A stretch of DNA of 53,758 nucleotides from Candidatus Woesearchaeota archaeon (GTDB lineage: Archaea; Nanobdellota; Nanobdellia; Pacearchaeales; GW2011-AR1): assembly GCA_964482665.1 (NCBI GenBank), contig CAYZYW010000002.1, forward strand, positions 1 to 53,758. The letters are read 5' to 3'. Position 1 is the first letter of the stretch. The number at the start of each line of letters is the position of its first letter. A program made the translations under genes and the position numbers. The notes beneath the pieces were generated by a model. That model was not told the origin of the DNA and searched no databases. It worked only from the letters and a program-made list of their open reading frames with translations. Shown here piece after piece: positions 10,009-43,635 of the stretch.

Positions 10009-10989
10009 ATGGAAAATAAAGAGGTTCAAAAACAAGAAAATAATTCTGAGGAGTGCAATCCAGTTAATCCATTAAATAAGCATTTAGAAAAAGTAAAAAA
10101 TAATCCTTGGATGGCTTCGACTATAGTTTTAGCGATTGTTAGTTTGATTTTATTATTAAGTAGTTTTTCAGGTGGAGTTATTACAGGTGGAGTTATTTCA
10201 GAAGTAGATGCAAGCGAAATGCTTTTAGATTTTTATACAACAAGTGGAGCTCAGGGATTAGAGATTGGTTCAGTTGAAGAATTGAGTGGAGTTTATCAAG
10301 TTAATTTTTTATATAATGGTCAAGCTGTTCCAATGTTTGTGACAAAGGATGGTAAGTTAGCAGGTCAATTGACACCCTTGAGTGCTCCTGAAGTTCCAGC
10401 ACAACAACCAACTACAACAACTATTCCTAAAACAGATAAACCAAAGGCAGAATTATTTATTATGACACATTGTCCATATGGAACACAAGCTGAAAAAGGA
10501 TTTTTACCAATGATGAGATTAATGGAGAATATTGCAGATGTCAAAATTAGATTTGTTCATTACTTTATGCATGATCCTGAAGAAACTGAAACACCTAGAC
10601 AAGTTTGTATAAGAGAAGAGCAATCAGATAAATATTTAGATTATTTAGAATGTTTTTTAGGTGAAGGAGATTCTGAAGGTTGTTTGGTTAACGCAGCTAT
10701 AGACCAAGTTTCAATGAATAACTGTATTGATAATGGAAACGCAGAAAAATATTATAAAGAAGATTCAGTATTAAGTGAAACTTATGGAGTTCAGGGAAGT
10801 CCTACTTTAATTATTAATGGTGTTAAATCAAATGCCGGAAGAGATGCGGCTTCATATTTAGATGGTTTATGTAAGGCATATACAGATAGTTCAGTTCCAG
10901 TACAATGTGGTGAGAAATTATCAGACGCTGCACCAACGCCAATGTGGGGATGGGATGGAAGTGGTTCAAATTCAGATGCACAGTGTTAA
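10009..10989 (+). CDS. membrane-anchored thioredoxin-fold (DsbA-like) protein
   Basis: One N-terminal TM segment, a CPYG redox-like motif, several extra Cys, and GSPTLIING typical of thioredoxin-like folds. Confidence 0.55.
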   Translation: MENKEVQKQENNSEECNPVNPLNKHLEKVKNNPWMASTIVLAIVSLILLLSSFSGGVITGGVISEVDASEMLLDFYTTSGAQGLEIGSVEELSGVYQVNFLYNGQAVPMFVTKDGKLAGQLTPLSAPEVPAQQPTTTTIPKTDKPKAELFIMTHCPYGTQAEKGFLPMMRLMENIADVKIRFVHYFMHDPEETETPRQVCIREEQSDKYLDYLECFLGEGDSEGCLVNAAIDQVSMNNCIDNGNAEKYYKEDSVLSETYGVQGSPTLIINGVKSNAGRDAASYLDGLCKAYTDSSVPVQCGEKLSDAAPTPMWGWDGSGSNSDAQC

Positions 10990-11015
10990 TATAATATATT
11001 TCTAATCACAACAAT

Positions 11016-11025
11016 CTTTAAATAT
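11016..11025 (+). promoter_or_regulatory. TATA box (ctttaaatat) about 26 nt upstream of the ATG at 11046
   Basis: Position and sequence pattern. Confidence 0.45.
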
Positions 11026-11045
11026 AAATAAGTATTATAATTTAT

Positions 11046-11498
11046 ATGGAAGATTTAGAAAATAAATTAGATCAAGTAGAGCAAGATAAAAAGCAAATTT
11101 TAGAAGAAATAGATGAAAGAAATAAAGATAGGGAGATTTTATGTGGTGGGTGTAAAGGTTATCATAAAATTAAGGATCTTACGGCAATTCAATATTATTG
11201 GCATGTTTCTCCACATGGATGCACAGGGGGGGATTATTGGAGAGAGGGAGAGTTGATATTTGTTTGTCCTGAAAATGGTATGGTTAATAGGTTATTGTTC
11301 GATAACAATGATGTCCCATTTGAAGATAGAAAAATGTATAAGAATGATCCCGAAGAACAATTTAAAAGAAATTATAAAAAATTATTTTTGGAAGTTGTAG
11401 ATAATTTTGATGAAACAATTCATGGTAAATGGGTAAATAATTTTTATGTTGATAAAAATCGTGAAAAGTTTGGGCTTGTCGAAAAAATAAAAAAATAA
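11046..11498 (+). CDS. hypothetical Cys-containing protein
   Basis: 150-aa ORF with CGGC...HGC...CPENG. No family recognised. Confidence 0.5.
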   Translation: MEDLENKLDQVEQDKKQILEEIDERNKDREILCGGCKGYHKIKDLTAIQYYWHVSPHGCTGGDYWREGELIFVCPENGMVNRLLFDNNDVPFEDRKMYKNDPEEQFKRNYKKLFLEVVDNFDETIHGKWVNNFYVDKNREKFGLVEKIKK

Positions 11499-11505
11499 AA
11501 TTTAT

Positions 11506-12693
11506 TTATCTGGTAATATATTCAATTTCTTCGTTGCTTAATTTAAGTTCTCGATGAATTTTTGGATTTGATTTTAAGATTTGTTTTATTACGGGAAAAT
11601 CTTTCATTGCACGTTTTTTACTTATGTGAACCAAGGGTGCGTATTTCATACATATTGATTTTTTCTTTAATGTTTTCATATTGTTTAGCCAAATTTTTAA
11701 AATTCTTTCAGGGCGTTTATATGCTGTGAATCCTGGCTTTTGTTTAGATTTTGCAGTAGATATAGCATAACTTAGAAAAGCATTTTCATAAACCAAGAAT
11801 CTCCAATATTGTTTTTTGTAAATTCTACCTTTGAATCGATCTGCTCTTGCCACAGCTTCGTATGCTTTCATTAATTCTTCTTTGTCATACTCAAGAGGAA
11901 TATTTTCTTCAACCCATAACATTATTTCGTCTAATTGCATATTCACAGAATCATAAACTTTTAGAGTTTCATTTGTTGGTTTTGTTTTAAATACAATTTT
12001 AAGTGCGTTGAAAATATCTGTTTCTTTGTTTCTTTCAGATAATTCGATTTTTGATGGGTCATCCATACTTGCCGCTGTTTGTAGGTCATTTATTGCAGCA
12101 CGCAAGTCACCTTTTGCATTTATTGCGATTTTAGAAATTATATCAGTTTCAATAGATTTGTTTTCTTTTTTTAGGATTACATTTAAGACATTTTTTACAA
12201 TTGAATATTCAATATCTTTTAATTGTAAAAGTTCTACTTTTTTTCGTAGTGGACTTAGTTTCTTTTTCCAAATGTCGTTTGCCGTGATAATTATAGGATG
12301 CGATGAGCTTGGCAATAATGACATTAGTTCAGACAAACCTCCTCTATCAACAGCAGAGATTCCATCTACTTCATCAAGTAAGATAATTTTTTTAGTTTTT
12401 GTTAAAGATTTTTGTTCGATTGCAGGTCGTAAAATTTCATATAATTTTTTTTTGTTTCTCAAATCAGATGCGTTTAATTCAAATATTTCTGAATTTGTTT
12501 CTTTAGCGACAACATGAACCAATGTTGTTTTTCCTGTTCCGGGTGGTCCATGTAAAACAAGTGCTTTTTTTTTGGCGTATGAAAATTGGGTAACAAATGA
12601 TTTAATTTTAGTTATTGCAAAATCTTGTCCTTTTATTTCTAGAAAACTTTTTGGTCTATATTTTTCAACCCAATTAGATTTATTGTTGGTCAT
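11506..12693 (-). CDS. rfcL: replication factor C large subunit
   Basis: WVEKYRPKSF, GPPGTGKTT and DEVDG motifs. Lies directly downstream of rfcS. Confidence 0.85.
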   Translation of the reverse strand: MTNNKSNWVEKYRPKSFLEIKGQDFAITKIKSFVTQFSYAKKKALVLHGPPGTGKTTLVHVVAKETNSEIFELNASDLRNKKKLYEILRPAIEQKSLTKTKKIILLDEVDGISAVDRGGLSELMSLLPSSSHPIIITANDIWKKKLSPLRKKVELLQLKDIEYSIVKNVLNVILKKENKSIETDIISKIAINAKGDLRAAINDLQTAASMDDPSKIELSERNKETDIFNALKIVFKTKPTNETLKVYDSVNMQLDEIMLWVEENIPLEYDKEELMKAYEAVARADRFKGRIYKKQYWRFLVYENAFLSYAISTAKSKQKPGFTAYKRPERILKIWLNNMKTLKKKSICMKYAPLVHISKKRAMKDFPVIKQILKSNPKIHRELKLSNEEIEYITR

Positions 12694-12695
12694 TA

Positions 12696-13655
12696 TTATT
12701 CTTTTCCTAGTCCAGCCAATACAAAGCTAGCAAGTAAAGCTTGAAGTTGAATAAATGGATCTGATCCTTCTGTTATTCTAAATTCTGTTTCACCTGTTTT
12801 TTCTGTTAGTCGAACTTTTAATTCAGGTTCTATTGGAAGATTCCATATTTCTTTTTGAATAGATTTGACAACATCTTGCCCTGCTACACTTTCTTTTAGC
12901 ATTATATCTAAAAGTTTTTCTTTTGATTTTTGAAAATCTCCAGATAAAGCATAATCTAAAACAATTTTGATATCTTTTGGTTTTGTATTTGAAATAATTG
13001 TTGAGACAAGTTCGGGAGTTATTGTTAGTGAAATTGGTACGGTTGATTGTAAAATATTTATACATCTTCGACAATCACCCTCGCTTCCTTCGTAAAGTAT
13101 TTCCATAGCATTTGGAACAATTGTTAAGTTTTCTATTTGTGCAATTCTTTGAATAACTTGTTCGATTGCTTTTTTTTCTAAAAGTTTAAATCTGAAGATT
13201 GCGCAACGTGATTGAATAGGGTCGATGATTTTACTTGAATAATTACATGACATAATAAATCGACATGTTGCTGAATAGTTTTCCATTGTTCGTCTTAATG
13301 CTTGTTGAGCTTCGGGTGTTAGGGCGTCTGCTTCATCTAAGAAAATAACTTTGAATGGAACACTTCCTAAAGCTTTTGTTCGTGCGAAATTTTTAACTTT
13401 TTCTCGAACAACTTGGATTCCTCTTTCGTCTGATGCGTTTAATTCTAAATATGATTCTTTCCAGTTTTTTCCAAATAGTTCTTTTACAACAATTAATGCA
13501 AGTGTTGATTTTCCTGTTCCGGCTGGACCTGCAAATAAAAGGTGTGGAATGTTCATAGAATTTGTAAGTGCTTCAACTCTTTTTACAATTTCATCTTGAC
13601 CAACAAGGTCTTTAAATGTTGATGGCCTAAATTTTTCTGTCCAAATTTCGCTCAT
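12696..13655 (-). CDS. rfcS: replication factor C small subunit
   Basis: WTEKFRPSTF, GPAGTGKST, LDEADALT and SRC motifs. Confidence 0.9.
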   Translation of the reverse strand: MSEIWTEKFRPSTFKDLVGQDEIVKRVEALTNSMNIPHLLFAGPAGTGKSTLALIVVKELFGKNWKESYLELNASDERGIQVVREKVKNFARTKALGSVPFKVIFLDEADALTPEAQQALRRTMENYSATCRFIMSCNYSSKIIDPIQSRCAIFRFKLLEKKAIEQVIQRIAQIENLTIVPNAMEILYEGSEGDCRRCINILQSTVPISLTITPELVSTIISNTKPKDIKIVLDYALSGDFQKSKEKLLDIMLKESVAGQDVVKSIQKEIWNLPIEPELKVRLTEKTGETEFRITEGSDPFIQLQALLASFVLAGLGKE

Positions 13656-13737
13656 GGTATATTGAATTCCATTTTGCTTATAAAGATTTGGATACTCTAG
13701 TAGAGAATTACTTTAGGGTTATGAAAAAATGGAATTA

Positions 13738-13750
13738 AAGATTTAAATAT
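13738..13750 (+). promoter_or_regulatory. TATA box (aaagatttaaatat) about 26 nt upstream of the ATG at 13771
   Basis: Position and sequence pattern. Confidence 0.45.
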
Positions 13751-13770
13751 GAGTTTTTCATGAGGAGTAT

Positions 13771-14571
13771 ATGTATGAGGTGTTTTTTTTATTGCTTGCA
13801 GGTGTTGGTGCTGGAATTATTACAGGTTTAATTGGGGCGAGTGCGGTTATGATTTCGGTTCCAATTATGGTTATTTTTTTGGGGTATGATATTTTTCTTG
13901 CGATTGGATTGAGTTTGGGGATTGATGTGGTAGCTTCAATAATGGCTGCTCTGGTTTATAAAAAATATGATAATATTAATATTAGAATAGGGATTCATAT
14001 GTCTTTTTTTGCAATTATAGGTGTTTTAATTGGAACATCTGTTTCGTTTTATATCCCGAAGGCATTGTTAACTGGATTAACAGGTATAGCGATTTGTTTT
14101 TCAGGTTTGAATTTTATGACTAGAAAGATTAGAGATGAAATAGAGGATGTTGTTGAAGATTTGAAATTAGATTATAAGAATAAAAGGTATTTAGTTACGA
14201 TGTTTGCGGCTTTGATTGTTGGTTTTATTGGTGGGTCGTTTGGTGCAGGAGGTGGCTTGTCGATGTTGTTGATATTAACATTTGTTTTACATTTTAAAAT
14301 TCATAAAGCAATTGGGACATCTATTTTTGTTATGATATTTATTGCATTATCAGGAGCAGTAAGTCATTATGTTTTTTTACCTTTTCCTATATATGCATTA
14401 GTGATTGCATGCATAGGTGCAGTTGTTGGCTCAAAATATTCAGCGAAAATAGCGAATCTTTTGAGCGAGAAGCAACTTAATAAATTGGCAGGAGTTATTT
14501 TCTTTGCGTTAGGGTTGGCTTTGATGATTCAACAAGTATTTAGTAATGGATATTTGAATTATTTATTTTAA
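13771..14571 (+). CDS. TSUP/TauE-SafE family membrane transporter
   Basis: About 8 TM segments with duplicated glycine-rich GAGGG-type motifs. Confidence 0.7.
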   Translation: MYEVFFLLLAGVGAGIITGLIGASAVMISVPIMVIFLGYDIFLAIGLSLGIDVVASIMAALVYKKYDNINIRIGIHMSFFAIIGVLIGTSVSFYIPKALLTGLTGIAICFSGLNFMTRKIRDEIEDVVEDLKLDYKNKRYLVTMFAALIVGFIGGSFGAGGGLSMLLILTFVLHFKIHKAIGTSIFVMIFIALSGAVSHYVFLPFPIYALVIACIGAVVGSKYSAKIANLLSEKQLNKLAGVIFFALGLALMIQQVFSNGYLNYLF

Positions 14572-15689
14572 ATTTTATAAATAAATTTGTCAAGCATTCC
14601 TTCAGCCTTTGCTCTTCTTTCTTGATGTTTTTTCAAGAAAGTATTCAATTTATCAATTAGTATTTTCTTTAATTCTCCAGATAATAATTTTCCTGATTCA
14701 TAATCTTTTTTTATTTGTTCAAGTTTATCATCGTCGTATTCAAAATATCTTAACCATTGATATGAAACATCTATATCTGTATTTCCGCCTTTCTTTCGAT
14801 GCTCTTCAATTGTATCTTGGCCACCTGAGAATGCATATTTGTTTATCTTTTTCTTTATTGTTTTTGGGTCATCTGTTAAAAGAATAGTTTTATCTGAGCT
14901 AGAGGAATCAATTTTACCATCTATTCCTGTTAGTGGCATCATCATTTTTGAATGAATAATTGAAGGTTTTTGATGTCCCAATTTTTTAATAACATCCCTT
15001 GATAATCTGAAGTGCGGGTCTTGGTCAACTCCTAGTGGAATTAAGCATCTTTGGTTTTTACCCGACAGAACATTTGGCAAGAATATTGGGACAGTTTGCA
15101 TTGCTGTGTAAAATATACTTCCAATATTATTTGTGTTTGTAAATCCAAAGGCTGCTTTTATTGAGGAGAATGTTATTTTTTTTGCAACTTTTATTGCTTC
15201 GGGATACATGATTCCTGCATGCTTAGTGTCAATTAAGAAATGTGTTTTTTTCGGATCAAATCCCAATGCAATTACATCTAACATATTTTCATGTGTCCAT
15301 TCTTGAATTTCTTCATATGTTTTGTTTTTATATAGGAATTTTTCATCATCTGTAAATTGAAACCATAGTTCTAAATCAAATTTATCTTGTAACCATTTTA
15401 CAAATCTCCATGTTCCCACATGTCCTAAATGTATTGGACCTGAAGGTCCTCTCCCAGTGTATAAGAACCCTTTATTTCCTTTATCGTATTCGTCTAAGAA
15501 TTCTTTTAAGTCTCTATGGGCAAAGAAAATTCCCCTTTTTATAAATGGGTGAACTTCTCCTGCTATTTTTCCAATTCGTTTTATTAAAGTTTTGTCAAGT
15601 TTTTTTACGCCGAATTCATTAATTAGTTTGTCATAATTTATTTTACCTGAAACTTCGTATGGATTCACCTTCATTTTTTGTTTTTGCAT
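14568..15689 (-). CDS. trpS: tryptophan--tRNA ligase (archaeal/eukaryotic type)
   Basis: YTGRGPSGPIHLGH, GVDQDPHFRL and AFSGGQDTIEEHRKKGGNTDIDVSYQWL. Confidence 0.85.
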   Translation of the reverse strand: MQKQKMKVNPYEVSGKINYDKLINEFGVKKLDKTLIKRIGKIAGEVHPFIKRGIFFAHRDLKEFLDEYDKGNKGFLYTGRGPSGPIHLGHVGTWRFVKWLQDKFDLELWFQFTDDEKFLYKNKTYEEIQEWTHENMLDVIALGFDPKKTHFLIDTKHAGIMYPEAIKVAKKITFSSIKAAFGFTNTNNIGSIFYTAMQTVPIFLPNVLSGKNQRCLIPLGVDQDPHFRLSRDVIKKLGHQKPSIIHSKMMMPLTGIDGKIDSSSSDKTILLTDDPKTIKKKINKYAFSGGQDTIEEHRKKGGNTDIDVSYQWLRYFEYDDDKLEQIKKDYESGKLLSGELKKILIDKLNTFLKKHQERRAKAEGMLDKFIYKI

Positions 15690-22602: not shown

Positions 22603-22779
22603 ATGGTAATTAAAGTTGATAAAAATACATGTATTGGATGTGGGCTTTGCGAGTCTATTTGCGAGGATGTTTTTGAAGTTGATAATGATGGGAAAGCACA
22701 AGTGAAAAAACAAAGTGATGATCCATGTGTTAATGAAGCAGTTGAGCAATGTCCAGTTGAAGCAATAAGCAAAAGTTAA
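22603..22779 (+). CDS. fdx: small ferredoxin (single Fe-S cluster type)
   Basis: CIGCGLCESIC ... CPVEAI. The start at ATG 22603 (or 22597) is preferred over the TTG at 22588. Confidence 0.8.
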   Translation: MVIKVDKNTCIGCGLCESICEDVFEVDNDGKAQVKKQSDDPCVNEAVEQCPVEAISKS

Positions 22780-22968
22780 GAAACCACTGGTTTCTTAATA
22801 ACTTCCTCATGTTCATGTTGGGCAGCATCTTTTTGTTGATAATCTTATAGAAAAAATAAATTTTTTCTATGTTTCTGTTGTCCAGGTGATGCCACATAGG
22901 CCCGTCGAGTGGTCCTTTTTCGTGTGCTGAATAAGTTAGGTTTATGGGTGTTGGGTAAGAAATGATTT
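22776..22968 (+). repeat. GC-rich hairpin element, copy 1 (carries an extra 10-bp hairpin insertion)
   Basis: Aligns to the copies at 43416 and 45115. It starts at the TTAA that contains the fdx stop codon. Confidence 0.75.
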
Positions 22969-31456: not shown

Positions 31457-31487
31457 TGTTCTTGTAGAATATTAAGAAATTGGGGTT

Positions 31488-31630
31488 TTAAAGGGTGTGG
31501 GGCACCAAGGTTCCCCTTACAATAACCCCTCCTTCTCTGTTCCGGCTAGTGGTATCTTTTAATTGCCTCCGATGGATACCACGAGAGGTTGTCAAGCAAC
31601 CTTTTTATGTGTGCTGTATAAGTTAGAGTT
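31488..31630 (+). repeat. GC-rich hairpin element, divergent copy 4
   Basis: Same architecture as copies 1-3 (TTAA, hairpin, CCTCC tract, hairpin ggttg-tcaag-caacc, T5). The tail TGTGTGCTGTATAAGTTAGAGTT is nearly identical to the other copies. Confidence 0.6.
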
Positions 31631-31647: not shown

Positions 31648-31670
31648 ATCCTACTGAGATTTTAACTCAG
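31648..31670 (-). repeat. 23-nt exact duplicate of the tRNA-Ile T-arm and 3' acceptor end (att-like)
   Basis: atcctactgagattttaactcag is identical to 33909-33931. Confidence 0.85.
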
Positions 31671-31710: not shown

Positions 31711-32016
31711 TTATTTAATCACGTAAACTTCGCCACTTATATCAATGCCAGTAACTTTCTCTCTTCCTATTGAAGAAGGTATTTTATTAAGGACATATTC
31801 TGCAAACTCATTTGCATCATTATAATTTTTAGGGGCTTTGTAAACAAATTGGACGCCAAATCTATTTTTAGAAGTTCTTCGAACATACATTAATTTAACC
31901 AACGGATCTTTTTTTAGCTTATGTCCTAATTTTAAAATTTGTTCTTTTGACACACTTTCTGAAAATCTTATAACCCCACATACAATTTTACTTCGTTTGA
32001 TTACATTTTTATTCAT
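31711..32016 (-). CDS. hypothetical protein (101 aa)
   Basis: ORF with an upstream TATA-like box. No family recognised. Confidence 0.5.
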   Translation of the reverse strand: MNKNVIKRSKIVCGVIRFSESVSKEQILKLGHKLKKDPLVKLMYVRRTSKNRFGVQFVYKAPKNYNDANEFAEYVLNKIPSSIGREKVTGIDISGEVYVIK

Positions 32017-32107
32017 AATTTATAATATGCGTTGAATTATTTAAATATTTCTAATATATTTAAATAATTTACAATAATATTTTAAACTATCAACTCATCT
32101 CTATATT

Positions 32108-32563: not shown

Positions 32564-33022
32564 TCACCAAAGTTTTTTCATCATAACTTTATCTTTTGAT
32601 TTAGATTTTCCAATTACCCAATATCCTGACGGCATAAGGTGATAACCTCTTTTTTTATAAAAATTAAGTGCAGATTTTGTAGAATATAGTCTTACTTGTC
32701 TTATCTTTTTCGAACGAGCATAATTTTCAATAAAATCCATTAATTGAGCCCCGATACCTTTTCCAACCTCAGAGCTCTTGATAAATAATCCTGCAATTTT
32801 GTCTCCACTCAAATCAACAGTTCCCAATAAAGTATTATCTTCCCATGCACAAAATATATTTTTATCTTTCATTTTATTAATAGTTCCCTGTGTAGAATTT
32901 TCATTTATTAAAAATTGAATGAATACCTTAGGATAACCATTTTTATTTATTTCTCTAATGGTCTTTCTTCTTAATGCACTAATTTTTTTCGCATCTTTTT
33001 TTCTTGCTTTTCTAATTATCAT
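32564..33022 (-). CDS. GNAT family N-acetyltransferase
   Basis: GKGIGAQLMDFIENYA...FYKKRGY acetyl-CoA-binding motif. Confidence 0.8.
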   Translation of the reverse strand: MIIRKARKKDAKKISALRRKTIREINKNGYPKVFIQFLINENSTQGTINKMKDKNIFCAWEDNTLLGTVDLSGDKIAGLFIKSSEVGKGIGAQLMDFIENYARSKKIRQVRLYSTKSALNFYKKRGYHLMPSGYWVIGKSKSKDKVMMKKLW

Positions 33023-33126
33023 CTTTTGTAATCAATTGAATCCCGGGTTATTTAATTATTTAACTCAGATGTAAAAAGTTATTTGGTGAGGCAAATTGAA
33101 GGGGAGTTGGAACATAGTTGATAAAT

Positions 33127-33651
33127 TTATTTTACAACTGCCCAATACATATTATCTAAATATTTTCCATTTTTAACAAATTCTTTCCGAAGGATGCCTT
33201 CAAATTTATATCCTGCTTTTTCAAGAACTCTTGCAGAGGCTTTATTGGATGTTCTACACCTACCAACTAATCTTTTCAACTTATATTTTTTAAACACATA
33301 CTTAGTAAATAATTTGAGAGATTTAGACATTAGACCTTTACTCCTGAAATCTGGATGCATACAATAACTAATGATCGCCTTATGTTCAGCATATTTTTTA
33401 TTTAAATCGTGAACAACTATATATCCAGCAAATTTTCCTTTAACATCAATTACAAATGTCTCTTCATGAGGTTTTTTTGTTTTAAGATTTACAATTTCCT
33501 TTCGAATTATAGTTTTAATTAAATGAACAGATATAGAAGTGGTCATAGAATTTTCTATTGATAACGGATCAGTTTCACATTCAACATATTTTTCAGCATC
33601 AGATAATTTTATTGGTCTTAAAATAAATCCTTTACTTTTAATAATCACCAT
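33127..33651 (-). CDS. GNAT family N-acetyltransferase (RimJ/RimL-like)
   Basis: RSKGLMSKSL...NKASARVLEKAGYKFEGILR signature. Confidence 0.8.
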   Translation of the reverse strand: MVIIKSKGFILRPIKLSDAEKYVECETDPLSIENSMTTSISVHLIKTIIRKEIVNLKTKKPHEETFVIDVKGKFAGYIVVHDLNKKYAEHKAIISYCMHPDFRSKGLMSKSLKLFTKYVFKKYKLKRLVGRCRTSNKASARVLEKAGYKFEGILRKEFVKNGKYLDNMYWAVVK

Positions 33652-33723
33652 ATTAAGACAGAAACATTTGTATTATATAAATATGATTAAAATAAGTTTC
33701 TTATCTGGTTATCACCAAGTAAA

Positions 33724-33906
33724 ATGATCCTACTTGCTCGCACATCGCAAAATCTTCTTTAAATTCACTTCGTTCATTTATTCGAAATTTTGGAAATGTT
33801 CGGATTTTAACAGGATTGAATTTTCAATTCAAGAAAGTTGTCGGAATTTGCAAAGCATAAAATCTCAGAATTAAATAATAGAGTTGAATCTATTCAACTC
33901 TAGATA
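33724..33906 (-). repeat. tRNA-Ile trailer module A (10-bp hairpin plus about 150 nt homologous to module B), ending in an 11-nt duplicate of the tRNA-Ile 3' end
   Basis: Hairpin tagagttgaa-tcta-ttcaactcta at 33879-33902. atgatcctact occurs at both 33724-33734 and 33906-33916. About 70% identity by eye to 34226-34400. Confidence 0.6.
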
Positions 33907-34035
33907 TGATCCTACTGAGATTTTAACTCAGGACCTCTGGCTCTCTTAGATTCTTTGGGGATTCCAAAAGATAACAACCCTGACGGATTGCATTCATATA
34001 AGACCAGCGCTCTGAACAGACTGAGCTATAGGATC
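33907..34035 (-). tRNA. tRNA-Ile (anticodon UAU) with a 54-nt intron at the canonical 37/38 position
   Basis: Hand-folded cloverleaf: acceptor GATCCTA/TAGGATC, D stem GCTC/GAGC, anticodon stem CTGGT/GCCAG, loop CT-TAT-A[intron]A, T arm CTGAG-TTAAAAT-CTCAG. Confidence 0.8.
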
Positions 34036-34046
34036 TTTGTTTGTAT

Positions 34047-34112
34047 TCCTATAGTGAAGCCCGTAAGACTGTGGTTTACGTTAATAGGCCATTCCTGTGG
34101 GAAGCTATAGGA
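34047..34112 (-). other. 66-nt structured element closed by an 8-bp stem (tcctatag/ctatagga) just upstream of tRNA-Ile
   Basis: Terminal inverted repeat plus internal hairpins cgtaa/ttacg and ttcc/ggaa. Its minus-strand 5' arm repeats the tRNA-Ile 5' end (ATCCTATAGCT). Confidence 0.45.
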
Positions 34113-34179
34113 TTTAATAATTTTTCAAGTATATTCAGTTATTTAAAGTTTTTTAGTATTGAAAAGTACAAAAAGATAT

Positions 34180-34224
34180 AGTATATGATTCAATCCCTAT
34201 TTTGAACCATATACTAACGCTCTC
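34180..34224 (-). repeat. 14-bp hairpin with loop AATAGGGA plus a degenerate copy of the tRNA-Glu 3' end
   Basis: Paralog of 34401-34445. Four compensatory stem changes, and the single mismatch is a G-U pair only on the minus strand. Confidence 0.65.
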
Positions 34225-34225
34225 T

Positions 34226-34438
34226 TCTTTTCACATGTCGTAAAATTTTTTATAAATTCGTTATACTCATTTATCTAAAAATTTCAGAAATGTTTGGACC
34301 TTGAAAAGGTTTTTGTGATCCTTGGGGTTATTCGAAATGGGTTGAATTAAAAATTCAATAAATCTTTTTGAATTTGTAGAGTGTAGAATATCAGAGATAT
34401 AGAGTATAACTCAATCCCTATTTTGAGTTACACTCTAA
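34226..34438 (-). repeat. tRNA-Glu trailer module B (homologous to module A) including the 14-bp hairpin at 34401-34436
   Basis: Aligned by eye to 33737-33878. The hairpin lies directly 3' of tRNA-Glu. Confidence 0.6.
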
Positions 34439-34585
34439 CGCCCTCACCGAGATTCGAACTCGGGTCACCGCCTATCTCCAAAGAAAGGCTGCATTTAGAT
34501 GCTAGACTTCCACTCTCCTCGAGATTTCATCACCTCTTCTTCAATTTTGAGAGGGCGGCATACTTGGCCTCTGTACTATGAGGGC
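34439..34585 (-). tRNA. tRNA-Glu (anticodon CUC) with an intron of about 74 nt at 37/38
   Basis: Hand-folded: acceptor GCCCTCA/TGAGGGC, D stem GTAC/GTAT, anticodon stem CCGCC/GGCGG, loop CT-CTC-A[intron]A, T arm CCGAG-TTCGAAT-CTCGG. Confidence 0.8.
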
Positions 34586-34608
34586 ATATAAAAATAACTC
34601 AAAGATGT

Positions 34609-34616
34609 TTTATAAA
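34609..34616 (-). promoter_or_regulatory. TATA box (TTTATAAA on minus strand) centred about 27 nt upstream of tRNA-Glu position +1
   Basis: The spacing would place the transcription start at or next to the mature 5' end. Confidence 0.45.
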
Positions 34617-34645
34617 TTTTTACAATATTTTAGAATAGTGAACTA

Positions 34646-34762
34646 TTATCTACTTCTAGCACGTCTTAGTTTACGTTTGTGTTTTTCTTTCCTTAATCTT
34701 TTTCGTTGCCATTTCCAACGCATCTGTCCTTTCTTTTTCCATCTACGGCTTGATCTTTTCAT
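34646..34762 (-). CDS. rpl41e: ribosomal protein eL41 (L41e), 38 aa, missed by the ORF track
   Basis: MKRSSRRWKKKGQMRWKWQRKRLRKEKHKRKLRRARSR matches the archaeal L41e RRWKKKGRMRWKW signature. Confidence 0.85.
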   Translation of the reverse strand: MKRSSRRWKKKGQMRWKWQRKRLRKEKHKRKLRRARSR

Positions 34763-34800
34763 ATATGATTTTGGTAAAATTCGTTTTTAAAGATTTTGGT

Positions 34801-39002: not shown

Positions 39003-39053
39003 AAATAAAATAAGAGAAAGTGGTTTAAATATTTTTATAATTAAAAATAAAAT

Positions 39054-39311
39054 GTAGACCGAGCAACTAGCTCAAGGATTGTCAAGAAGCTACCTTTATT
39101 TTTTCTCAGTTCTGCTACCTGTTAAGCATCTGTGTGGATGTTTAGGGCTGCTCCGATCAAGGTCTGACCCGGTTCGCATCTACAAGATCAAAACAGACAA
39201 AACGTCAACGTCCAAATAAAGACTTTTCGACGCACATATCACGCATTGCTCGTAGTCTGCCATAAAGCCCGTTTGCAAATAGCGGAGGGCTAACCCGCTG
39301 ATCTAGTCTAC
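39054..39311 (-). ncRNA. signal recognition particle RNA (7S/SRP RNA), short form
   Basis: GC-rich island. Minus-strand GGTCAGACC..TCGGAGCAGCC (39145-39172) resembles the helix-8 GGUCAGGUCCGGAAGGAAGCAGCC motif. The 5' GTAGAC pairs with the 3' GTCTAC. TATA lies at -25 and a T-run follows the 3' end. Confidence 0.65.
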
Positions 39312-39330
39312 GAAAATATGAAGAAATAAG

Positions 39331-39340
39331 GGTTTAAATG
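39331..39340 (-). promoter_or_regulatory. TATA box (CATTTAAACC on minus strand) about 25 nt upstream of the SRP RNA 5' end
   Basis: Position relative to the terminal helix of the RNA. Confidence 0.45.
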
Positions 39341-39350
39341 ATTTGTGGGT

Positions 39351-42978: not shown

Positions 42979-43419
42979 ATGATGAGGAAAAATAAGAGAG
43001 GTTGGATAAAAATTATAGAGGCGTTTATTGCGATTTTGTTGATTGCGGGTGTGTTGCTTGTTGTTATAGATAAGGGTTATATTAGTAAAGGTGGTGTTGG
43101 TAAAAAAATATATGAAGCTGAATTGTCAATACTTAGAGAAATTGAATTGGATGATAAATTAAGAAGTGAAATTTTAGAAATAGATGAGGATAAGCTTCCG
43201 AAAAAAGGTCCTCCAGGAGTTGTTCTTAAATTAGATATTCGAACTCCAGATTATCTTGAATGTGTTTCAATGGTTTGTGCAACAGATGTTATTTGTTTGG
43301 CTGATGTATATCATAATATTCCTTTGGATAAAGATGTATATTCAAAGGCGGTTCCGATTTTTGCAGAGCTTGATAAATATTCTCCACGACAATTGAAGTT
43401 GTTTTGCTGGACTGATTAA
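42979..43419 (+). CDS. pilin-like protein
   Basis: MMRKNKRGWIKIIEAFIAILLIAGVLLVV N-terminus. Confidence 0.55.
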   Translation: MMRKNKRGWIKIIEAFIAILLIAGVLLVVIDKGYISKGGVGKKIYEAELSILREIELDDKLRSEILEIDEDKLPKKGPPGVVLKLDIRTPDYLECVSMVCATDVICLADVYHNIPLDKDVYSKAVPIFAELDKYSPRQLKLFCWTD

Positions 43420-43635
43420 GAAACCCCTGGTTTCTTAATAACCTAAAGGTCACAAGCAACTTCCTCACGTTCATGTTGGGCAGCATCTTTCTTGCACTTT
43501 GGGATACTACATGGGCCCGTCTAGCGGTCCTTTTTCGTGTGCTGAATAAGTTAGGTTGTTGATGACAGGTAATAAATGGTTAACGAAAGGGAAGAAAAAA
43601 TTTTATGGGGTAGGTAGATTATTTGAGGGGGAATG
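43416..43635 (+). repeat. GC-rich hairpin element, copy 2 (upstream of rtcB)
   Basis: Aligns to copies 1 and 3. Its TTAA contains the stop codon of the pilin-like gene. Confidence 0.75.

Follow-up and report, generated by a model that had tools for sequence, protein, structure and literature searches.

Bacterial cis-mobilizable elements (CIMEs) and similar integrase-less derivatives of integrative elements, known from work on ICESt1 and ICESt3 of Streptococcus thermophilus, are flanked by attL and attR sites, have lost their recombination module and move by means of a recombinase from a related element. In archaea, the elements integrated at tRNA genes are kilobases long and carry an integrase and cargo. 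Their att cores at the tRNA 3′ end can be just 11–14 bp, as in Msmi-Pro1 and SNJ2, and may extend past the tRNA or sit in its 5′ half, as in pTN3-type elements; related integrases, moreover, switch tRNA targets (PMC8371274, PMC5861418). At the locus described here, two homologous modules, A and B, stand behind two neighboring tRNA genes, and each ends in a copy of the 3′ end of its own tRNA. Our leading interpretation, which we put slightly below an even chance, is that the modules are two diverged copies of a small (~170–210 bp), non-coding, non-autonomous insertion cassette, most likely placed there by site-specific recombination at tRNA 3′ ends.

The window, a stretch of 53,758 nt to which all positions refer, comes from an uncultured Pacearchaeota-like archaeon. 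An independent assembly (ENA ERZ27315536), the only other one of the species, is identical over the whole 1.15-kb intergenic region, so the region is not an assembly artefact; both assemblies represent the same strain. On the minus strand, the order in the Glu part is tRNA-Glu, one T, hairpin H1, module B, GAGAGCG (34224–34218), one T, hairpin H2, TATATC and TTTTT, and in the Ile part a leader, tRNA-Ile, hairpin HA, module A and 11 nt that repeat the tRNA-Ile 3′ end exactly. The sequence, its repeats and ARAGORN run with introns all agree with this order, which the first-pass annotation had already given from tRNA-Glu to the 11-nt duplicate.

34439–34585, minus strand: tRNA-Glu(CUC) with a 74-nt intron at the canonical position (Rfam RF00005, 45.9 bits; ARAGORN with introns enabled).
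34400–34437, minus strand: hairpin H1, 15-bp stem with one G·U pair and loop AAUAGGGA (−19.7 kcal/mol, z = −5.5).
34225–34399, minus strand: module B, non-coding, homologous to module A (fold z = +0.1).
34179–34216, minus strand: hairpin H2, 15-bp stem with one G·U pair, terminator-like (−17.9 kcal/mol, z = −5.5).
34036–34114, minus strand: leader of tRNA-Ile, ~79 nt, from the sequence (earlier described as a 66-nt element).
33907–34035, minus strand: tRNA-Ile(UAU) with a 54-nt intron (Rfam, 55.2 bits; ARAGORN with introns enabled).
33879–33902, minus strand: hairpin HA, 10-bp stem and 4-nt loop (alternatively 11 bp and 2 nt), terminator-like (−11.2 kcal/mol, z = −4.1).
33735–33878, minus strand: module A, non-coding, homologous to module B (fold z = +1.0).

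Default-mode ARAGORN finds neither of the two tRNAs, because of their introns; Rfam and intron-enabled ARAGORN find both. When Rfam 15 covariance models were run over 33500–34800, the two tRNAs alone matched, and everything else fell far below threshold (ohsC, for example, at 29.8 bits against 50). Transcription of tRNA-Glu is apparently leaderless, since TTTATAAA at 34609–34616 lies 23 nt upstream of G1 in the promoter alignment. No TATA box belonging to tRNA-Ile itself was seen in the sequence or the promoter alignment. Its leader opens with an exact 11-nt copy of tRNA-Ile positions 2–12 (34103–34113), and TTTAAATA lies ~25 nt upstream of this copy. A split or permuted tRNA and a non-canonical intron were both rejected: the helices lack bulges and form no bulge-helix-bulge, and both tRNAs are complete without distal fragments.

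Each tRNA 3′ end recurs downstream of its gene, and that of tRNA-Ile does so twice.

34395–34445, minus strand: 51-nt repeat, copy 1, consisting of the last 7 nt of tRNA-Glu, one T, H1 and CTATATCT.
34174–34224, minus strand: 51-nt repeat, copy 2, consisting of GAGAGCG (34218–34224), one T, H2 and TATATC.
33906–33916, minus strand: 11-nt repeat, proximal copy AGTAGGATCAT, tRNA-Ile positions 64–73 plus one T (100% identity between copies).
33724–33734, minus strand: 11-nt repeat, distal copy, exact (11/11), running into TTTT (33721–33724).
31648–31670, minus strand: 23-nt copy of the T-arm and acceptor 3′ strand of tRNA-Ile (blastn-short 23/23, E = 8e-8).

The tRNA-identical direct repeats that an att footprint comprises, one copy intact and one displaced, are present for Ile (11/11), for Glu (10/11) and in the 23-nt fragment, and the 42 window ORFs scanned contain no integrase in or beside the modules. 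An exact 11-mer within 300 nt downstream is expected ~1e-4 times by a hand calculation at 30% G+C. The two copies of the 51-nt repeat are 78% identical (blastn E = 9e-8 within the window), and the single mismatch of the Glu repeat (GAGAGCG versus GAGGGCG in the tRNA) is a G70A change that would break the acceptor stem. In the A/B alignment, the Ile and Glu repeats occupy the same column. Each module ends in the repeat of its own tRNA; a single copied trailer would be expected to bring along the end of the donor tRNA instead. In relatives, a T-run stands immediately behind tRNA-Glu (L026) and tRNA-His (L071 and L072), and neither a hairpin nor a module is present. The distal Ile repeat runs into TTTT in the same way and so resembles the original end of the gene, oligo-T terminator included, displaced by 182 nt.

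The 23-nt fragment lies 2.24 kb downstream of the tRNA-Ile gene, with module A, three small ORFs and two GNAT genes in between. Because this 3′ fragment lies downstream and the 11-nt 5′ fragment upstream, the tRNA-Ile locus has evidently been hit more than once by recombination at tRNA sequences. Extended homology following the two Ile repeats, or shared between them and the 23-nt fragment, was rejected as not significant. The 2.2-kb stretch from tRNA-Ile to the 23-nt fragment was likewise, though tentatively, rejected as an obvious foreign island, having no PHROG or integrase signal and showing a GNAT–ABC-F linkage found also in relatives. However, towards the genomes with this linkage the GNATs reach 70–84% similarity, far above the 52% of the ABC-F gene.

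Modules A and B are 64% identical across a 208-column global alignment, in which a ~32-nt extra stretch is specific to B. Locally, a left block of 67% and a right block of 71% are parted by this 32-nt indel, so the identity of roughly 70% estimated by eye in the first-pass annotation describes the two blocks and overstates the whole. That annotation had also named non-significance of the similarity against shuffled controls among the grounds for abandoning its proposal. The local alignment scores z = 7.1 when 500 dinucleotide shuffles serve as the control and 6.5 when mononucleotide shuffles do, and the similarity stands. A 7-3-7 palindrome, TTGAATTnnnAATTCAA at 34342–34358 in B, has a counterpart at 33816–33832 in A; it was rejected as a common operator, not being enriched outside the two modules. 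The sequence behind H2 was rejected as a third module (z = 0.2).

The module bodies have no overall structure and fold like shuffled sequence. Neither do they share a conserved ORF: a 46-aa plus-strand ORF in A lacks a counterpart in B, and an encoded peptide was rejected on this ground. We also rejected a C/D-box RNA or other known RNA, the box arrangement being absent by eye and Rfam giving 0 matches. Non-coding, unstructured modules are what would be expected of a non-autonomous element. Terminal inverted repeats are absent: the ends, ATCTAGAGTTGAAT... and ...GCGATGTGCGAGCA and their equivalents in B, are not inverted copies of each other, and the inverted repeats found in the window include no pair of this kind. 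A casposon, defined by a 14–15-bp target duplication, Cas1 and a polymerase, was rejected because inverted terminal repeats are absent, the window has no Cas1 or PolB, and the size is 0.2 kb.

The hairpins start 1–4 nt behind a tRNA discriminator, H1 just one base past that of tRNA-Glu, and HA and H1 have the outer stem TAGAGT/ACTCTA in common. The stems of H1 and H2 had been described as 14 bp and are 15 bp in both; the 10 bp given for HA fit with a 4-nt loop, the 11-bp form being an alternative. As originally counted, H1 and H2 differ at 10 stem positions, through four double changes and two changes to G·U, and all 15 pairs are intact in both. Ten random substitutions in H1 preserve every pair in 49 of 2,000,000 trials (~2.5e-5). 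The covariation count was thus correct, for a comparison of two sequences. Less secure is the assignment of the hairpin to a minus-strand RNA, because both DNA strands can form it and chance alone would put two G·U pairs on one strand about once in four (our estimate). The apical 16 nt are conserved between H1 and H2 in direct orientation. The window, with three such hairpins in its whole 54 kb, holds no other copies, and a genome-wide repeat of the repetitive-palindrome type was rejected on that basis. A lox- or dif-like crossover in the loop was rejected as well: hybrid arms (H1-left/H2-right and H2-left/H1-right) pair at just 12–13 of 15 positions, whereas the real hairpins are perfect, which places any crossover 5′ of the hairpin. 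Nor do the hairpins qualify as integron attC sites, given their perfect 15-bp stems without bulges, the misfit of GTTAGAG and GTTAGTA to GTTRRRY (R″/R′ = RYYYAAC...GTTRRRY), the unpaired GTT and the absence of an integrase from the window.

Termination in archaea mainly needs oligo-T. Hairpins of intrinsic-terminator type, followed by oligo-T, stand behind archaeal stable-RNA genes, and HA and H2, with T-rich tails directly behind tRNA-type 3′ ends, resemble them. By sequence, a stable stem-loop with an immediate T-run is present in H2 (TATCTTTTTG; TATATC, then five T at 34170–34174) and in HA (the T-rich TTATTTAATT downstream) and absent from H1, behind which there is no T-run. Terminator-like sites number three, including HA and H2, against 0.5 expected. 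The likeness fails for H1 and in two further respects: relatives end these genes with oligo-T alone, and the conserved apical 16 nt are needless for a terminator.

These hairpins could belong to a host-encoded functional trailer, in which the hairpin, and perhaps the module, is a signal at the RNA level by which intron-containing pre-tRNAs are terminated, stabilized or processed at their 3′ ends, and was duplicated between genes. The first-pass annotation had raised a conserved tRNA trailer or processing module of this kind. Compensatory and G·U changes that preserve the stems on the tRNA strand would suit such a signal, as would the hairpin position 1–4 nt past the discriminator, the terminator-like character of HA and H2 and the identity of the region in two assemblies, although the last says nothing of constraint when both assemblies are of the same strain. 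However, neither hairpin nor module accompanies the orthologous tRNA-Glu of L026, a gene with the same acceptor and T arms, a homologous intron and a non-syntenic neighborhood, and the tRNA-His of L071 also lacks both. The bodies are unstructured and match nothing in Rfam, H1 has no T-run, and the tRNA-end repeats and module-end promoter are left unaccounted for. We consider a functional trailer quite improbable.

A derivative of a hairpin-dependent single-stranded DNA transposon would explain other features of the hairpins. Were element B a palindrome-associated element of IS200/IS605 type, or a substrate of some other HUH endonuclease, H1 would form its left end and H2 its right; two similar direct hairpins with a conserved apical 16 nt and covarying stems, foldable on both DNA strands, and the lack of terminal inverted repeats would all be in keeping. 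This family, however, inserts without target duplication, yet tRNA-end repeats flank both modules; module A has one hairpin only, the tRNA-Glu 3′ end would fall inside the element, no TnpA or TnpB gene occurs in the window, and 54 kb contain only three such hairpins. An IS200/IS605-derived palindrome-associated element was rejected on the single hairpin of A and the flanking repeats, and the wider single-stranded DNA explanation is very unlikely.

At the end distal to the tRNA, each module carries a TATA-like box.

34249–34256, minus strand: TATA-like box TTTATAAA in module B, 21 nt before G34227.
33756–33763, minus strand: TATA-like box TTTAAAGA in module A, 21 nt before A33734.

Such TTTAWAWA-type 8-mers occur once per 493 nt per strand, and one is found 20–23 nt upstream of 18 of the 44 start codons considered (43 ORFs and an L41e-like ORF), at exactly 21 nt in 13 of them. 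Both modules end on the right in this promoter pattern, an 8-mer with a 21-nt spacing, which predicts transcription from the base that opens the tRNA-end repeat (A33734 and G34227).

A promoter abutting the core resembles the integrase promoters beside att sites of archaeal elements (PMC8371274), which leads to the possibility that the modules are decayed ends of two related full-length integrated elements, viruses or plasmids, with the module left as attL arm, the right as attR arm and the interior lost by independent deletions. The repeats match tRNA 3′ ends, the deletion junction could lie at the 32-nt indel between the 67% and 71% blocks, and the 42 ORFs scanned in the window include no integrase. 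Nevertheless, two independent deletions would have had to end within ~30 nt of each other on both sides, and the modules hold no recognizable coding remnant. We regard this origin as unlikely.

A spacer between two tRNA genes would be expected to have the same anatomy, opening with a terminator-like hairpin and closing with a promoter that precedes a tRNA-like fragment by 21 nt. The modules could then be relics of tandem duplications, each the spacer between copies of the same tRNA, with the second copy deleted from +1 to about position 63 and its last 10 nt and terminator remaining. Tandem tRNA-Glu(CUC) genes do occur in other metagenomic organisms (three loci), and the 23-nt fragment at 31648–31670 could be a further decayed tRNA-Ile copy. 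But the Glu and the Ile gene would each have had to duplicate independently, yet with homologous spacers, and two deletions would each have had to remove exactly +1 to ~63 and leave the promoter spacing at 21 nt; the presumed junctions show no microhomology, and the homology of spacers behind two unrelated tRNAs stays unexplained. We judge relics of tandem duplication to be about as improbable as decayed full-length elements.

Searches beyond the two loci returned no further copy. Within the window, relaxed blastn with the modules, H2 and the leader recovers only the A/B and H1/H2 pairs and no further module copies, and an nhmmer profile built on the A/B alignment finds nothing above chance in the relatives' loci fetched. 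Among viral contigs, the exact 16-mer of the hairpin apex matches 22 times, never in a hairpin, the module and the tRNA-Ile 3′ end match 0 times each and the palindrome has 27 chance matches; the exact module pattern has one chance match among GTDB species genomes, in a coding region of an Omnitrophota contig, and the exact hairpin pattern has 0 in JGI metagenomes. Comparison by blastn with phage and plasmid collections gave 0 matches. No other trailer or genome in these searches thus carries the module or the hairpin, an outcome that the first-pass annotation had listed as counting against its proposal; the scans of viral contigs, GTDB and JGI used exact patterns, and the nearest relatives are distant (best protein identities 72–78%). 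Near homologues of the flanking ATPase, GNAT and ABC-F genes, there is no tRNA at the corresponding place in the 17 relatives' loci inspected. Profiles for integrase, transposase and Cas1 (Phage_integrase, rve, Y1_Tnp and OrfB) detect nothing in 42 window ORFs, which include nearly all of those of at least 200 aa.

The suggestion of small elements that target tRNA 3′ ends, made at the outset, fits best: each repeat comes from its own tRNA, a T-run follows the distal Ile repeat, and a third tRNA-Ile fragment is present. The repeats, the homology, the compensated hairpins and the geometry of the promoters are observed, as are the further tRNA-Ile fragment and the lack of modules behind relatives' tRNAs. 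From these we infer mobility, a recombinase, a direction of events and any transcription along the following lines. Each cassette copy would have inserted at the acceptor-stem 3′ end of a tRNA gene, most likely by site-specific recombination of the tyrosine-integrase type with the enzyme supplied in trans, using a short core of about tRNA positions 64–73 plus the first trailer bases. The cassette would then have a restored tRNA 3′ end on one side and, on the other, the original one, displaced but still with its native oligo-T terminator. The empty tRNA-Ile site would have been the tRNA-Ile body joined to AGTAGGATCA-TTTT (AGTAGGATCA-TTTTACTTGG), and the empty tRNA-Glu site GAGGGCG-T-H2. The tRNA-proximal stem-loop could serve as a new 3′ boundary or terminator of the tRNA transcript, the central 7-3-7 palindrome could bind protein, and the distal consensus promoter would fire outward from the base at which the target repeat begins. 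Were the cassette circular or in tandem, this promoter would read over the core into the hairpin; an element-encoded hairpin RNA, if made, would be ~55 nt long and consist of GAAGAGAGCGU, H2 and a U-run. H2 is most readily taken as the proximal end of an older, truncated family copy, displaced downstream by a later insertion at the same tRNA-Glu target, and the four compensatory and two G·U changes between H1 and H2 would represent divergence of family members under selection that retained the stem-loop.

Several observations count against insertion of a cassette. Just two copies have come to light, separated by 0.5 kb in a single genome; they lack terminal inverted repeats, and the window ORFs scanned include no gene for an integrase, a transposase or Cas1. 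The core would have to differ between the cassettes, being Ile in one and Glu in the other. Moreover, the 51-nt Glu repeat can be accommodated only if an older copy, nested and truncated, is assumed in addition, and no module homology follows H2. Finally, a circle of ~0.2 kb is mechanically awkward as a recombination substrate.

More broadly, the modules could represent ultra-small (~0.2 kb), non-coding integrative cassettes of DPANN archaea. Such cassettes would home to the 3′ strand of the acceptor in tRNA genes, bring their own terminator-like stem-loop and an outward promoter starting exactly at the target repeat, and be handled by a trans-acting recombinase that reads the conserved-apex stem-loop as RNA or single-stranded DNA. 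We think this generalization doubtful. The cassette design, which provides the tRNA with a terminator hairpin and the opposite flank with a promoter, suggests how insertion into a very compact, leaderless-transcribing genome can be neutral. To our knowledge, almost nothing has been learned of recombinases or mobile DNA in Pacearchaeota and other DPANN archaea, and mobile cassettes would offer a handle on both; they would also indicate that tRNA-gene integration can be reduced to ~0.2 kb of core, stem-loop and promoter. In such genomes, annotation can easily overlook or mislabel intron-containing tRNAs and short repeats of tRNA ends. As two copies in one genome, the modules are a modest curiosity and, if merely local relics, they would be an ordinary footprint of recombination at tRNA genes.

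Among described systems, MITEs share with these cassettes a small, non-coding, non-autonomous body and a short target direct repeat, and can carry outward promoters. By contrast, MITEs are defined by terminal inverted repeats, absent here, and they target short degenerate sites, whereas the cassettes are tied to the end of a particular tRNA. MITEs are dispersed through a genome in many copies; two copies are known here, in the 53.8-kb window. The integrated elements that target archaeal tRNA genes are closer. As at this locus, they have direct repeats of ~11 nt from the 3′-distal acceptor region, restore an intact tRNA and leave the displaced fragment at the far end; homology can extend past the tRNA, related systems target different tRNAs, and conserved arms flank the core. 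Those elements span kilobases with integrase and cargo, whereas the putative inserts here are 171–210 nt long and non-coding, and no integrase was found in the window. Like CIMEs, the cassettes would have kept both att sites, lost the recombination module and come to depend on the recombinase of a related element. We know of no CIME-like element this small, and of none in DPANN archaea. CIMEs are bacterial, kilobase-sized and still gene-carrying, whereas the cassettes here are archaeal, non-coding and ~0.2 kb long and, if truly integrative, would be the smallest site-specific integrative elements described.

Reading the minus strand of 33500-34700 established the layout of the tRNA-Glu/tRNA-Ile locus and bore out the order of elements proposed in the first-pass annotation, although both long stems, given there as 14 bp, actually have 15. 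Modules A and B are homologous non-coding stretches 3' of tRNA-Ile and tRNA-Glu, respectively; H1 and H2 are the long stem-loops of a repeat on the Glu side, and HA lies directly 3' of tRNA-Ile.

34585-34439 (-), tRNA-Glu(CUC), with a 74-nt intron
34437-34400 (-), hairpin H1, one T after tRNA-Glu
34399-34225 (-), module B
34224-34218 (-), degenerate tRNA-Glu end GAGAGCG (the tRNA reads GAGGGCG)
34216-34179 (-), hairpin H2, preceded by one T and followed by TATATC and TTTTT
34036-34114 (-), 79-nt leader of tRNA-Ile
34035-33907 (-), tRNA-Ile(UAU), with a 54-nt intron
33902-33879 (-), hairpin HA
33878-33735 (-), module A
33734-33724 (-), AGTAGGATCAT, which repeats the final 10 nt of tRNA-Ile and the following T without a mismatch

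Because introns interrupt both genes (74 nt in tRNA-Glu, 54 nt in tRNA-Ile), ARAGORN at default settings found no tRNA; both were recovered by Rfam and by an intron-aware ARAGORN run. A repeat search returned the Glu-side repeat (51 nt, 78% identity) and two exact 11-mers, one at the 3' end of tRNA-Ile and the other (tRNA-Ile positions 2-12) opening the leader. L001, an independent assembly of the same species, is identical to the window across the entire intergenic region.

The similarity of the two modules is real and non-random. Their local alignment scores 42, against 20.6 +/- 3.0 in dinucleotide shuffles (z = 7.1; z = 6.5 in a second test), and they share 64% identity over 208 columns in a global MAFFT alignment with a single 32-nt insertion in B, or 67% and 71% in two blastn blocks. 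H1 and H2 have the same 16-nt apex (TCAAAATAGGGATTGA) and flanks, and their stems differ at 10 positions with 15/15 pairs intact in each: four pairs are altered on both sides and two are altered to G.U. Ten random substitutions in H1 retained every pair in 2.5e-5 of simulated trials. The compensatory and G.U counts hold; coming from two sequences, they do not amount to a statistical covariation test, and the strand assignment is weak because either DNA strand can form the hairpin (-10.4 versus -9.2 kcal/mol for H1; -9.3 versus -7.9 kcal/mol for H2).

Relatives do not support the proposal of a conserved processing module. A search with the 3' 23-mer of tRNA-Glu found a single orthologue, in L026 (a JGI contig of 170 kb). 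Its acceptor and T arms are the same and its intron is homologous but longer; the gene continues directly into TTGGGTTTTTCTTTT and has neither hairpin nor module. A tRNA-His gene adjoining the ABC-F gene in another relative (L071/L072) has TTTTTG directly 3'. An immediate T-run is therefore the usual trailer in this lineage, and the distal Ile repeat likewise runs into one (AGTAGGATCA, then TTTT), so that this repeat and its T-run look like the original gene end, displaced. Searches of the window and relatives' loci, exact-pattern scans of viral contigs, GTDB species genomes and JGI metagenomes, and blastn against phage and plasmid collections gave no more than chance matches for further module or hairpin copies. 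The module bodies show no folding beyond that of shuffled sequence (z = +1.0 for A and +0.1 for B), match no Rfam family and have no ORF in common; even with the stem pairs preserved, a functional trailer RNA is distinctly unlikely. The tRNA-Glu intron itself is conserved (window 34480-34550 (-), 74 nt; L026 8600-8700, 103 nt), carries GGUGAUGA/GGUGAUCA and includes a segment similar to the T-arm and acceptor 3' strand of the tRNA itself (AAUCUCGAGGAGAG versus AAUCUCGGUGAGGG).

Promoter signals help to define module anatomy. Of the 44 start codons surveyed (43 ORFs and an L41e-like ORF), 18 are preceded at 20-23 nt by a TTTAWAWA-type 8-mer, 13 of them at exactly 21 nt, whereas on each strand such 8-mers occur at a density of one per 493 nt; examples are 34762, 33651, 32016 and 13655 (-), and 670, 3602 and 11046 (+). 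This regular spacing implies leaderless mRNAs. The 8-mer also precedes G1 of tRNA-Glu by 23 nt, both in the window and in L026, a sign that tRNAs too may be transcribed without leaders, as they are in RNase P-free Nanoarchaeum. Whereas tRNAs of this lineage otherwise seem to begin at +1, tRNA-Ile lacks its own TATA box and appears to be transcribed with its 79-nt leader, which closes into an 8-bp helix (UCCUAUAG/CUAUAGGA). An uncalled 38-codon ORF (MKRSSRRWKKKGQMRWKWQRKRLRKEKHKRKLRRARSR; 34646-34762 (-)) that looks like ribosomal protein L41e occupies the interval from the pilus ATPase gene to tRNA-Glu and has a consensus promoter 21 nt upstream.

The box TTTATAAA of module B lies exactly 21 nt before G34227, where the tRNA-like repeat GAAGAGAGCG begins, and TTTAAAGA of module A lies exactly 21 nt before A33734, the start of the Ile repeat; the right ends of the modules thus look like promoters. 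Both modules hold a perfect 7-3-7 palindrome (TTGAATTnnnAATTCAA) with a differing centre, which shows no enrichment elsewhere in the window. HA and H2 are terminator-like, with T-rich tails (3 such sites in the scan versus 0.5 expected); H1 has no T-run and has the outer stem TAGAGT/ACTCTA in common with HA. From hairpins, palindrome and box geometry, a common plan emerges for the modules: terminator-like hairpin, palindrome, predicted outward promoter. An IS200/IS605-like hairpin element is highly improbable. Among 42 window ORFs scanned, including nearly all of at least 200 aa, there was no integrase, transposase or Cas1. Elsewhere, distant intergenic regions hold a near-identical pair of 11-bp palindromes, TTAAGAAACC(N3)GGTTTCTTAA (22775-22799 and 43415-43439), which may be a shared operator or terminator.

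Further tRNA fragments lie nearby. The T-arm and acceptor 3' strand of tRNA-Ile recur as an exact 23-nt copy at 31648-31670 (-) (E = 8e-8), 2.24 kb downstream on the same strand, so that gene and fragment bracket module A, two GNAT genes and three small ORFs. It may mark the distal limit of an old integration, or be what decay has left of another tRNA gene. With the leader's 11-nt 5' fragment included, four partial tRNA copies are present at the locus. The modules might be relics of tandem tRNA duplications, an unlikely course in which the second tRNA body was exactly deleted; that they are decayed arms of two larger integrated elements is also improbable.

The two GNATs (32564-33651 (-)) are 70-84% identical to proteins at relatives' loci (L030-L035/L066), whereas the adjacent ABC-F there is only 52% identical to the window's, which suggests GNAT lateral transfer or paralogous ABC-F genes; GNAT-ABC-F linkage recurs in genomes with those GNAT homologues. 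At L066, an MCM helicase gene stands beside an archaeo-eukaryotic primase (AEP) gene (10942-14779), ~2.5 kb from the GNAT/ABC-F cluster, a pairing characteristic of archaeal plasmids or viruses that have integrated. In the ABC-F homologues nearest to the window's (70-71% identity), a conserved leader with a hairpin (CATGACAAGCGAA...AGCTGTGCTTGTCGAATAT) precedes the start codon (L067 5800-6000, L068 800-1000, L069 5800-6000); the window's gene lacks it. Between the 23-nt fragment and ABC-F, a ~130-nt G+C-rich island (31470-31600 (-)) may be a small RNA or leader; it matches nothing in Rfam and is not more stably folded than shuffles (z = -0.9). A hairpin of 14-16 A-T pairs (AATTATTTAAATAT...ATATTTAAATAATT; 32033-32071) overlaps the promoter region of a 101-aa ORF (31711-32016).

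Proteins encoded on either side (type IV pilus ATPase, GNAT, ABC-F) find their best matches in Pacearchaeota/Nanoarchaeota MAGs at only 72-78% identity, and these matches revealed no genus-level relative on record. The window has 30% G+C, RtcB and an archaeal SRP RNA match (39052-39313 (-); 72.9 bits, below the Rfam gathering score of 96.5). All 35 differences from L001 fall in the 5' part of this RNA (39171-39348), past which the assemblies have no common sequence. Either strains recombined with a breakpoint at the SRP RNA gene, or one assembly is chimeric there.

Both modules end in their own tRNA's 3' end at one alignment column, a pattern that favors a repeat linked to insertion (att core or target duplication) over one trailer having been copied. 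The earlier suggestion of a small element targeting tRNA 3' ends is the best available reading, although it draws on a single genome with two neighbouring copies, no recombinase in the ORFs scanned and no empty site seen. Most simply, tRNA-Glu would have been hit twice: H2 would be the hairpin of an older copy, since truncated, and the second insertion would lie upstream of it; the junction of module B promoter, core, H2 and T5 would then resemble that of a tandem or circular form. Crossover in the hairpin loop was rejected because hybrid arms pair at only 12-13/15 positions, yet H1 and H2 are both perfect. Archaeal tyrosine integrases use cores down to 11-14 bp at tRNA 3' ends (Msmi-Pro1, SNJ2), may have sites reaching beyond the tRNA and switch tRNA targets within a family (PMC8371274, PMC5861418). 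Given these habits, we tentatively favor a non-autonomous mini-cassette, possibly integrated by such a recombinase supplied in trans; on this reading the modules would be footprints that site-specific integration left at tRNA genes.
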